This document shows, piece after piece, positions 12,373 through 12,729 of a stretch of 13,384 nucleotides of DNA (position 1 is the stretch's first letter; every line of letters begins with the position of its first letter). Below the pieces are notes generated by a model that ran no database searches, was not told the DNA's origin, and worked only from the letters and a program-made list of their open reading frames with translations. Source of the DNA: a virus. The stretch lies in the UHGV virus genome UHGV-1740647. One strand, given 5' to 3'. A program made the translations under genes and the position numbers.

Positions 12373-12394
12373 GACGGGGACTTTCGTCCCCGTC
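12373..12394 (-). other. perfect 9-bp stem / 4-nt loop hairpin at the 3' end of the hok-like transcript
   Basis: GACGGGGAC-TTTC-GTCCCCGTC begins 9 nt downstream of the hok-like stop. No U-tract follows on the minus strand, so it looks more like an mRNA 3' stabilising or fold-back element than a classical terminator. Confidence 0.4.
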
Positions 12395-12403
12395 GCGGTT
12401 TTC

Positions 12404-12544
12404 CTACTGCTTACACTGTAAGAACGCCGCAAACTCCGCTCCCCACAAATTCAGCCGGAACTCACACAACGAGCCGTGTAACATCCAGATGGTGAAGATT
12501 ACCGTCATACAAATTGTGACGGTGATGAGCGATTTTTGCGACAT
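12404..12544 (-). CDS. hok: Hok/Gef-family type I toxin (small membrane peptide)
   Basis: Not in the ORF track; found by manual translation. ATG at 12544 preceded by AGGAGG (9-nt spacer). Encodes MSQKSLITVTICMTVIFTIWMLHGSLCEFRLNLWGAEFAAFLQCKQ (46 aa): N-terminal TM helix plus the SLCE...AAF...C signature as I recall it for Hok/Gef/HokA (recalled HokA ...FTWMIRDSLCELHIKQESYELAAFLACK). Stop TAG at 12404-12406. Confidence 0.65.
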   Translation of the reverse strand: MSQKSLITVTICMTVIFTIWMLHGSLCEFRLNLWGAEFAAFLQCKQ

Positions 12545-12729
12545 AGCGCTTGCCTCCTGAGTGGAGAGGCGCTAACCTTCTACTTGCTTAAGGTATGATG
12601 GTTAGGGCCTCGGGTTAAACAAAATGTTTGACTCGGGGCCTTTCCACATCAGGCCTTCAGGTTCACCTTCCAGCCATCAGCCGAAAGACACCCGCGCATA
12701 ATCTACGATTTTTGCCCTGCACGGGCAAC
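12545..12729 (-). promoter_or_regulatory. hok-like mRNA leader with candidate sigma70 promoter and expected cis-antisense (Sok-like) RNA region
   Basis: Minus-strand TTGCCC (plus 12723-12728), 17-bp spacer, TAGATT (plus 12700-12705) would give a leader of about 150 nt, as in hok/mok/sok loci. Leader is highly structured (for example TAGCGC...GCGCTA and GCCTC...GAGGC around 12546-12576). Small upstream ORFs are present, for example a 15-codon ATGTGGAAAGGC... frame. Exact antisense RNA ends cannot be placed by eye. Confidence 0.3.

Follow-up and report, generated by a model that had tools for sequence, protein, structure and literature searches.

A probable hok/sok-type cassette beside lom in a 933W-like Shiga toxin-type prophage, candidate second hok locus of its phage type

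The stretch of DNA analysed here (referred to as the window) comprises 13,384 nucleotides of the virus genome UHGV-1740647, and all its genes lie on the minus strand. Between the end of lom (position 12777) and a gene resembling L0129 of phage 933W it carries a small open reading frame (ORF; 12404..12544, minus strand) of 46 codons and a stop, which is assigned to the Hok/Gef family and to cluster 72 of Escalera-Maurer et al., and whose product reads MSQKSLITVTICMTVIFTIWMLHGSLCEFRLNLWGAEFAAFLQCKQ. The Shine-Dalgarno (SD) sequence AGGAGG (12558..12553, minus strand) stands 8 nt before its ATG. Further upstream on the same strand are a structured leader and a putative promoter; a hairpin follows in the 3' untranslated region (UTR), and the plus strand carries a putative promoter for an antisense RNA of the Sok type. 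We are confident that these features together form a type I toxin-antitoxin cassette of the hok/sok kind, intact and some 390 bp long (12729..12339), which sits as a self-contained accessory gene, a 'moron', in a 933W-like Shiga toxin (Stx)-type prophage, and that it is a second hok locus, separate from the published hokW-sokW of this phage family.

The family assignment is carried by profile matches. Against PF01848 (HOK_GEF) of Pfam the peptide scores 33.2 bits (gathering score 22; E = 4e-8), the alignment spanning peptide residues 8-44 and profile positions 6-42 of 42. In NCBIfam the HokA and Hok models are its sole as well as its top-ranked matches, both under their own cutoffs; the HokA model NF007290 gives E = 9e-10 and 38.4 bits and misses its equivalog cutoff of 89. 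Because 38.4 bits is so far under that cutoff, the peptide is best classified as a member of the Hok/Gef family and not as a HokA orthologue. More than 80% conservation is given for seven residues in the Escalera-Maurer et al. preprint (bioRxiv 10.1101/2025.08.07.668861); the peptide has every one of them, as M1, C12, T14, L26, C27, E28 and E37 (M1, C16, T18, L30, C31, E32 and E41 in the numbering of its family logo), and the N-terminal hydrophobic stretch is LITVTICMTVIFTIWML. An earlier note on this DNA, made from the letters alone, had recognised a Hok-type toxin here and had proposed alignment to Hok models as a check, which bears it out; the 46-codon ORF, the AGGAGG ribosome-binding site, the leader of roughly 150 nt (149 nt by our reckoning) and the perfect 9-bp hairpin also lie where that note had placed them. 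With only 46 codons, and absent from the first ORF track and from the original 933W annotation, the frame could be taken for a chance ORF in an intergenic spacer with a coincidental likeness to Hok. To this we give practically no probability: the Pfam match lies above the gathering score, homologues with 63-100% identity and a conserved frame occur in many phages, plasmids and genomes, and the ORF is flanked by hok-leader homology from Rfam, so that at the level of sequence the explanation can already be considered refuted.

For comparison, 87 related loci were fetched using a two-sequence peptide alignment, and 47 distinct transcript versions, 60-100% identical to the window, were aligned; all counts of variants given below out of 47 refer to this set. 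Copies with unrelated flanks are homologous from the hok promoter's -35 (TTGCC, ~12729) to just past GGCACCC (12339), which makes the unit a cassette some 390 bp in length. The locus had originally been drawn at 12373-12729, with the 9-bp hairpin as its 3' end. Its elements are in place, but the conserved block extends from ~12729 to 12339 and the hairpin is internal to it. The description of the site as an accessory slot proves apt, as the cassette is found in unrelated contexts. In 933W-like podoviruses it adjoins lom, as an insertion between lom and the L0129-like gene; a diverged form follows gpD/ogr at the end of P2-like prophages, one of which resides on an IncHI2 plasmid. Within this sample of related sequences the ratio of non-synonymous to synonymous substitution rates (dN/dS) of hok is 0 inside the Stx-phage group and ~0.2 between subgroups, and the copy in the window differs from that of one relative, L009, by 7 synonymous and 0 non-synonymous changes; the peptide thus appears to be under purifying selection. 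Three copies of this enterobacterial phage locus, at 76-100% peptide identity, come from assemblies labelled Xanthomonas pisi (L002), Planococcaceae metagenome-assembled genome (L003) and Vagococcus sp. (L005), and are most likely due to contamination of these assemblies with E. coli or Salmonella contigs.

The gene itself is not new. A protein identical to the peptide is held in RefSeq as WP_000078907.1, 'Hok/Gef family protein'. Up to position 13308 the window differs from a prophage of E. coli FORC_069 by only two mismatches, and the region is matched in 1550 of 5426 complete E. coli genomes (in 417 of these over at least 80% of the query) and in 198 phage records, mostly of Stx-converting phages. 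Names given to the gene in some phage records are 'MokW-like host killing', 'host toxic membrane protein' and 'small toxic polypeptide'. The original 933W record (AF125520) has no annotation between lom and L0129, so that the word 'unannotated', which the earlier note had applied to the locus, is correct for that record and incorrect for RefSeq and several phage records. Moreover, the exact 46-residue peptide is entry 72_1589 in Table S2 of the preprint, listed as a 'high-abundance cluster' representative with the SD GGAGG, and the plasmid pAZ3-72_1589 was cloned for an arabinose-induced toxicity assay (bioRxiv 10.1101/2025.08.07.668861). According to the text of the preprint, 42 of 45 screened Hok peptides were toxic, and the non-toxic ones named there are 19_179, 60_1482 and 69_1540 (bioRxiv 10.1101/2025.08.07.668861). 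The same study analysed coding sequences only, explicitly leaving aside Sok, Mok and mRNA structure, and discusses neither the position beside lom nor a co-occurrence with hokW (bioRxiv 10.1101/2025.08.07.668861). A search of main texts in the literature for the peptide sequence or its accession returned no paper; the preprint supplement alone has the peptide. For the Sakai strain, 14 Hok genes were counted by Fozo et al. 2010 (PMC2887945). The locus is, in sum, already known: it is annotated in RefSeq, its peptide has been catalogued and put through a toxicity screen, and the enrichment of hok genes in prophages is known as well.

Upstream of hok, the putative promoter (12729..12701, minus strand) consists of the -35 TTGCCC (12729..12724), a 17-nt spacer and the -10 TAGATT (12706..12701). 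It agrees with the consensus at 8 of 12 positions, under the minimum of 9 of 12 set for the promoter scan; its -10 region, GTAGA(T/A)T, is common to this leader and that of 933W hokW. A permissive search by E-value aligned the Rfam model RF01794 in its entirety (1-157) with 12693..12533 of the hok strand (E = 3.6e-6). Though named 'sok', this model would really describe the hok mRNA leader, since its consensus ends in a Shine-Dalgarno sequence and AUG. From the alignment the 5' end of the hok mRNA likely falls near 12693, seven bases past TAGATT, and the leader is therefore 149 nt long; we regard it as homologous to the model yet divergent.

The RNA elements typical of the founding system, hok/mok/sok of plasmid R1, are recognisable in this leader and in the 3' UTR. 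Position 1 of RF01794 is aligned at 12693, where the 5' end with the tac element, GGGUGUCUUUCGGCUGA, begins (12693..12677, minus strand); the fbi element, UCAGCCGAUAUGGCACCC (12356..12339, minus strand), forms the last conserved bases of the cassette. In the minimum free energy (MFE) fold of the full-length RNA, tac (the first 17 nt) pairs with fbi at a pair probability of 0.98-1.0, and this persists in a longer model RNA that reaches as far as the next terminator. When the RNA is truncated, tac pairs instead with a ucb-like box, GGAAAGGCCC(C) (12644..12635, minus strand), its alternative partner in the predicted 5' stem of the processed mRNA. RNAalifold on the 47 variants recovered this tac/ucb stem (with GGAAAGGCCCC, 12644..12635) together with a Sok-target stem-loop, GAGGC.CUAACC/GGUUAG.CGCCUC (12611..12566, minus strand), for which the Rfam alignment, the folds and the pair counts also speak. 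The GAGG in the 5' arm of the latter is homologous to the mok Shine-Dalgarno sequence of R1, and the 3' arm holds the dcb/anti-SD sequence; in MFE folds and pair counts the anti-SD segment, AGCGCCUCUCC (12573..12563, minus strand), pairs either with the upstream GAGGC or with the hok SD. In silico, the target stem is 98.6% paired across the variants, with one-sided changes only, and tac/fbi and tac/ucb are paired in 97.9% and 97.7% of cells. By analogy, tac/fbi and tac/ucb would correspond to the closed and open states that have been described for R1 hok mRNA (PMC9841398).

The 3'-UTR hairpin (12394..12372, minus strand) has 9 perfect base pairs at 12393..12372, GACGGGGAC-GAAA-GUCCCCGUC, and 10 with a closing U-G. 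It alone among these elements covaries, with compensatory changes at two pairs (AU:27/GC:20 and AU:20/CG:19/GC:6), and 3' trimming is likely to stop at it. On the plus strand (12372-12395) CGGTTTTCC comes after the same hairpin, which there resembles a terminator for transcription arriving from the other side and might protect hok against antisense read-through. One naturally 5'-truncated form of the cassette was met, in L025 (IMGVR_UViG_2529293141_000015, ~1285-1390): the hok promoter and the first ~40 nt of the leader, with tac, are swapped for unrelated sequence, and Sok, hok and fbi are intact.

On the plus strand, overlapping the hok ribosome-binding region, lies the putative Sok promoter (12550..12578), with the -35 TTGCCT at 12550-12555, a 17-nt spacer and the -10 TAACCT at 12573-12578. 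Its hexamers and spacing are identical to those of the 933W sokW promoter, and TAACCT is invariant in the 47 variants. In the work on hokW-sokW, primer YO-421 turns the TAACCT of sokW into GAGCCG, and the 'pro-less' construct released HokW toxicity (PMC8621323). Since the annotated sokW RNA begins 7 nt past its -10 (AF125520), the Sok-like RNA is predicted by analogy to start near 12585. It would measure about 60 nt (12585..12644, plus strand), with a 5' tail of ~20 nt, a hairpin of 16-18 bp (~12604-12642) and UUU; the U-tract after the hairpin thus has 3 nt only. The strand assignment is in line with hairpin stability: in the copy of the window the hairpin reaches -32.3 kcal/mol in the plus sense against -15.1 in the sense of the mRNA, and the plus sense is the more stable in all 28 of 28 distinct variants (means -27.1 against -14.4 kcal/mol), because G-U pairs in one sense are C-A mismatches in the other. 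An alternative -10, TATGAT (12594-12599), was rejected: it has no -35 and is unconserved, against a TAACCT that is invariant and matches sokW. The antisense RNA had been expected somewhere within 12560-12700; a Sok-type promoter and hairpin do exist on the plus strand, and the RNA is now placed at ~12585-12644. The published RNA and ribosome-profiling sequencing (RNA-seq/Ribo-seq) study of EDL933 lists Rfam-defined sok loci only, and the locus beside lom falls below the Rfam threshold.

Where the cassette departs from R1 is in its lack of mok, the overlapping leader frame that the comparison with hok/mok/sok-style loci had led the earlier note to expect. Not one of the 47 variants has ATG, GTG or TTG where the R1 mok start would lie by homology, just after the conserved GAGG. 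Stop codons close the overlapping frame in 32 of them, including the window, and the other 15 have it open, 9 from an ATG 103 nt ahead of the hok start and 6 from one 130 nt ahead. In the window the former ATG begins a closed upstream ORF of 15 codons, MWKGPESNILFNPRP (12649..12602, minus strand), which ends 58 nt before the hok ATG.

Folding suggests how hok might be controlled in another way. The energy needed to open the SD was computed for three model RNAs, over 6 nt for the copy of the window and over 9 nt for the means of the 47 variants. It amounts to 8.3 kcal/mol (mean 7.1) in the full-length RNA, 3.5 (mean 3.9) in RNA trimmed to the 3' hairpin, and 6.7 (mean 6.5) in trimmed RNA with the antisense target held single-stranded, and 46 of the 47 variants keep this order. 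Two pairings of GCGCCUCUCC are seen in the folds, one with the upstream GAGGC, which leaves the SD free, and one with GGAGG..GCGC, which closes it. According to the resulting model, the weak promoter would give a hok mRNA starting near 12693, in whose full-length form tac is predicted to pair with GGCACCC/UCAGCCGA of fbi (12356..12339), both elements being conserved, and the SD to be locked in a local hairpin with the anti-SD GCGCCUCUCC. Once trimmed from its 3' side as far as the conserved 9-bp hairpin, the RNA would lack fbi, the 5' end would refold onto GGAAAGGCCCC, and the Sok-target stem would then capture the anti-SD and free the SD. The antisense RNA of ~60 nt, transcribed from TTGCCT-17-TAACCT on the plus strand, would pair with 12644..12585 and, by analogy with R1 and sokW, trigger decay by RNase III. 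By occupying the upstream arm it should in addition release the anti-SD, which in the folding model re-closes the hok SD; such a locus could therefore work without a mok leader peptide. Once the antisense RNA is lost, the 46-residue Hok would, from what is known of the family, insert in the inner membrane and kill or lyse the cell. As a wider proposal, which the folding model raises and which we put forward only tentatively and consider somewhat doubtful, cluster 72, with the copy of the window, would be a naturally mok-less hok/sok under direct antisense control, and in phages of the 933W/Sp5 type both hok systems would be functional and each orthogonal to the other.

The same lack of mok can be read as decay: having lost the mok frame, hok would be a translationally silent relic that has ceased to yield Hok, and the cassette a mere passenger of the prophage. 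In R1, premature stops in mok or its truncation do abolish Hok translation (PMC9841398), chromosomal hok loci are often degenerate (PMC2887945), and the start codon at the mok position is missing throughout, with the frame closed in the window and in most variants; the L025 form without promoter and tac could be cited to the same effect. We nevertheless find this explanation quite improbable. A relic would hardly display the purifying selection noted above (7 synonymous and 0 non-synonymous differences from L009, dN/dS ~0.2 between subgroups) or a strong and correctly spaced SD, and all regulatory RNA elements, the antisense promoter and hairpin included, are conserved in two unrelated phage families. 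The folding model, besides, yields a mok-independent switch in 46 of 47 variants, and going by the wording of the preprint the peptide would by exclusion count among the toxic ones (bioRxiv 10.1101/2025.08.07.668861).

Several points weigh against the interpretation as an intact hok/sok-type cassette. By consensus both promoters, of hok and of Sok, are weak, and the promoter scan flagged neither. At the gathering threshold Rfam returned no match for the locus, RF01794 reaching 35.1 bits in the permissive mode against a gathering score of 59. Among the 47 variants no covariation is seen in tac/fbi, tac/ucb and the target stem, because their columns are nearly invariant, so that what comparison offers for the folds is largely conserved sequence; these variants are, moreover, related and were fetched by protein similarity, so that the dN/dS values and the robustness counts are biased. 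A conserved mok ORF is missing from both alternative frames of the 47, and if mok coupling of the R1 type were obligatory here, no Hok would be made. That 72_1589 is toxic is deduced by exclusion from the text of the preprint. Finally, in this phage context no intrinsic terminator directly follows fbi, unlike in the P2-like copies, where one comes immediately after; the next is a terminator-like hairpin in the hok sense at 12244..12212 (minus strand; GACGCCUGC..GCAGGCGU then UUUUGUUUUG), within the L0129-like ORF, and in this context the primary hok transcript may end there.

As to the native role of the cassette, stabilisation of the prophage or help with lysis after induction are the most likely options, and it could also serve in abortive infection. 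The only functional precedent in the phage family, hokW-sokW of Sp5, points to help with lysis and phage release: HokW is produced after induction, growth arrest comes ~40 min earlier, and phage release is doubled (PMC8621323). One may therefore picture the product as a membrane effector of the late lytic cycle, a holin-like helper made when late-operon transcription reads through hok, the antisense RNA serving only to silence it in the lysogen. hok is on the strand of lom and of all downstream late-region genes; given this common orientation, anti-terminated late transcription would be expected to cross hok and to meet the Sok promoter head-on, and the sister locus does advance growth arrest by ~40 min and double phage release (PMC8621323). 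On the other hand, hokW of 933W is oriented opposite to the late genes, so that the mechanism need not transfer, and in the P2-like copies, at the prophage end after ogr, late read-through is less obvious. On balance we consider such a late role rather unlikely; it is in any case compatible with the hok/sok-type cassette, as the two do not exclude each other.

Stx-converting phages free Shiga toxin on host lysis, and the timing of lysis and the stability of the prophage are consequently of medical relevance. In a phage type with a known hokW-sokW there is now a second, intact-looking hok cassette beside lom. If two functional, orthogonal hok systems were truly present, the published phenotypes of the hokW-sokW deletion (40 min of delay, yield lowered 2-fold) would understate what Hok toxins add to the lysis and release of Stx phages. 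The published deletion left the locus beside lom in place (PMC8621323). The missing conserved mok frame is the only mildly unusual point, and makes the locus a natural test case for Hok control independent of a leader peptide; beyond this mok-less control and a possible redundancy with hokW, the locus is ordinary.

Some observations concern the surroundings of the cassette. On the lom side an intrinsic terminator (12754..12734, minus strand; AACCCGC-TGTGATG-GCGGGTT then TTTTTGTTG), recognised by terminator scan and from its sequence, separates lom from the hok promoter. On the other side, the ATG at 12347 with which RefSeq begins the 133-residue L0129-like ORF falls within the conserved fbi element; the record of vB_EcoS_P32 starts the gene 24 nt further in, at ATG 12323 (M9), and this shorter start seems the more plausible. 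The hairpin at 12212-12244 can also be read as a plus-strand terminator (12221-12244) and has a weak Rfam match to STnc370; in the lysogen, hok transcripts might terminate at it, and expression of the genes downstream might be attenuated. Elsewhere on the minus strand, a giant ORF of 2784 residues (789-9143), homologue of L0134 of 933W, bears the annotation 'LPD38 domain-containing protein' and has five small hypothetical genes upstream of it. An ORF of 83 residues (10488-10739) resembles a glycine zipper (YMGG-like; 26.7 bits against a Pfam threshold of 28.9) and may code for a small membrane protein. At the end of the window the last 76 bases (13309-13384) diverge fully from the FORC_069 prophage; they cut lom short and bring in an in-frame stop. 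No match for these bases came up among complete E. coli genomes, among PLSDB plasmids or, searched as an exact 36-mer, in IMG/VR; a chimera at the contig end, an insertion of unknown origin and an artefact are all possible.

Among the closest known systems is hokW-mokW-sokW of 933W and Sp5 (Takada et al. 2021, PMC8621323). The two loci share the phage family, a Hok-family toxin with a cis-antisense RNA, the identical antisense promoter TTGCCT-17-TAACCT and homologous leader 5' ends. Identity of the two was considered and rejected: the HokW primers encode MKQQKAM...DYESEK, and hokW lies at 58.5-58.7 kb of 933W. More precisely, hokW/mokW/sokW occupies 58460-58734 of AF125520 (18461-18735 in L091) and the gap between lom and L0129 lies near 45.4-45.9 kb, so that the cassette, judged by its sequence and position, is the second hok locus of 933W/Sp5-type phages, ~13 kb from hokW-sokW. 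HokW differs in having 51 residues and belonging to the HokD-like cluster 35, with 33% identity to the peptide beside lom, and its locus in having an annotated mokW of 70 codons and an orientation opposite to the late genes. hokW-sokW has been characterised by experiment, including neutralisation by the antitoxin (PMC8621323), whereas the locus beside lom is known here from sequence; the hokW paper makes no mention of a hok locus adjacent to lom (PMC8621323).

With hok/mok/sok of R1 (parB, the founding type I system; PF01848, RF01794) the cassette has in common a membrane peptide of the pattern C..T..LCE..E, a leader of ~150 nt, the tac/fbi and tac/ucb pairings and a target stem-loop with GAGG/GCCUC pairing (both predicted here), and a cis-antisense RNA of ~60 nt, likewise predicted here, whose promoter overlaps the hok ribosome-binding region. 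R1 Hok differs in length (52 residues against 46) and is 28% identical. Moreover, the locus beside lom has no mok frame at the homologous position, its hok SD apparently being controlled directly by the anti-SD in the folding model; it resides in a prophage late region and not on a plasmid, and its Rfam score is under the gathering score. The chromosomal hokA-E of E. coli K-12 share the family, the peptide being 26-36% identical to HokB-E and compared with HokA by model only. Also among the closest systems is cluster 72 of the preprint (72_1589 and 72_1621; bioRxiv 10.1101/2025.08.07.668861), in which 72_1589 is the identical 46-residue peptide.

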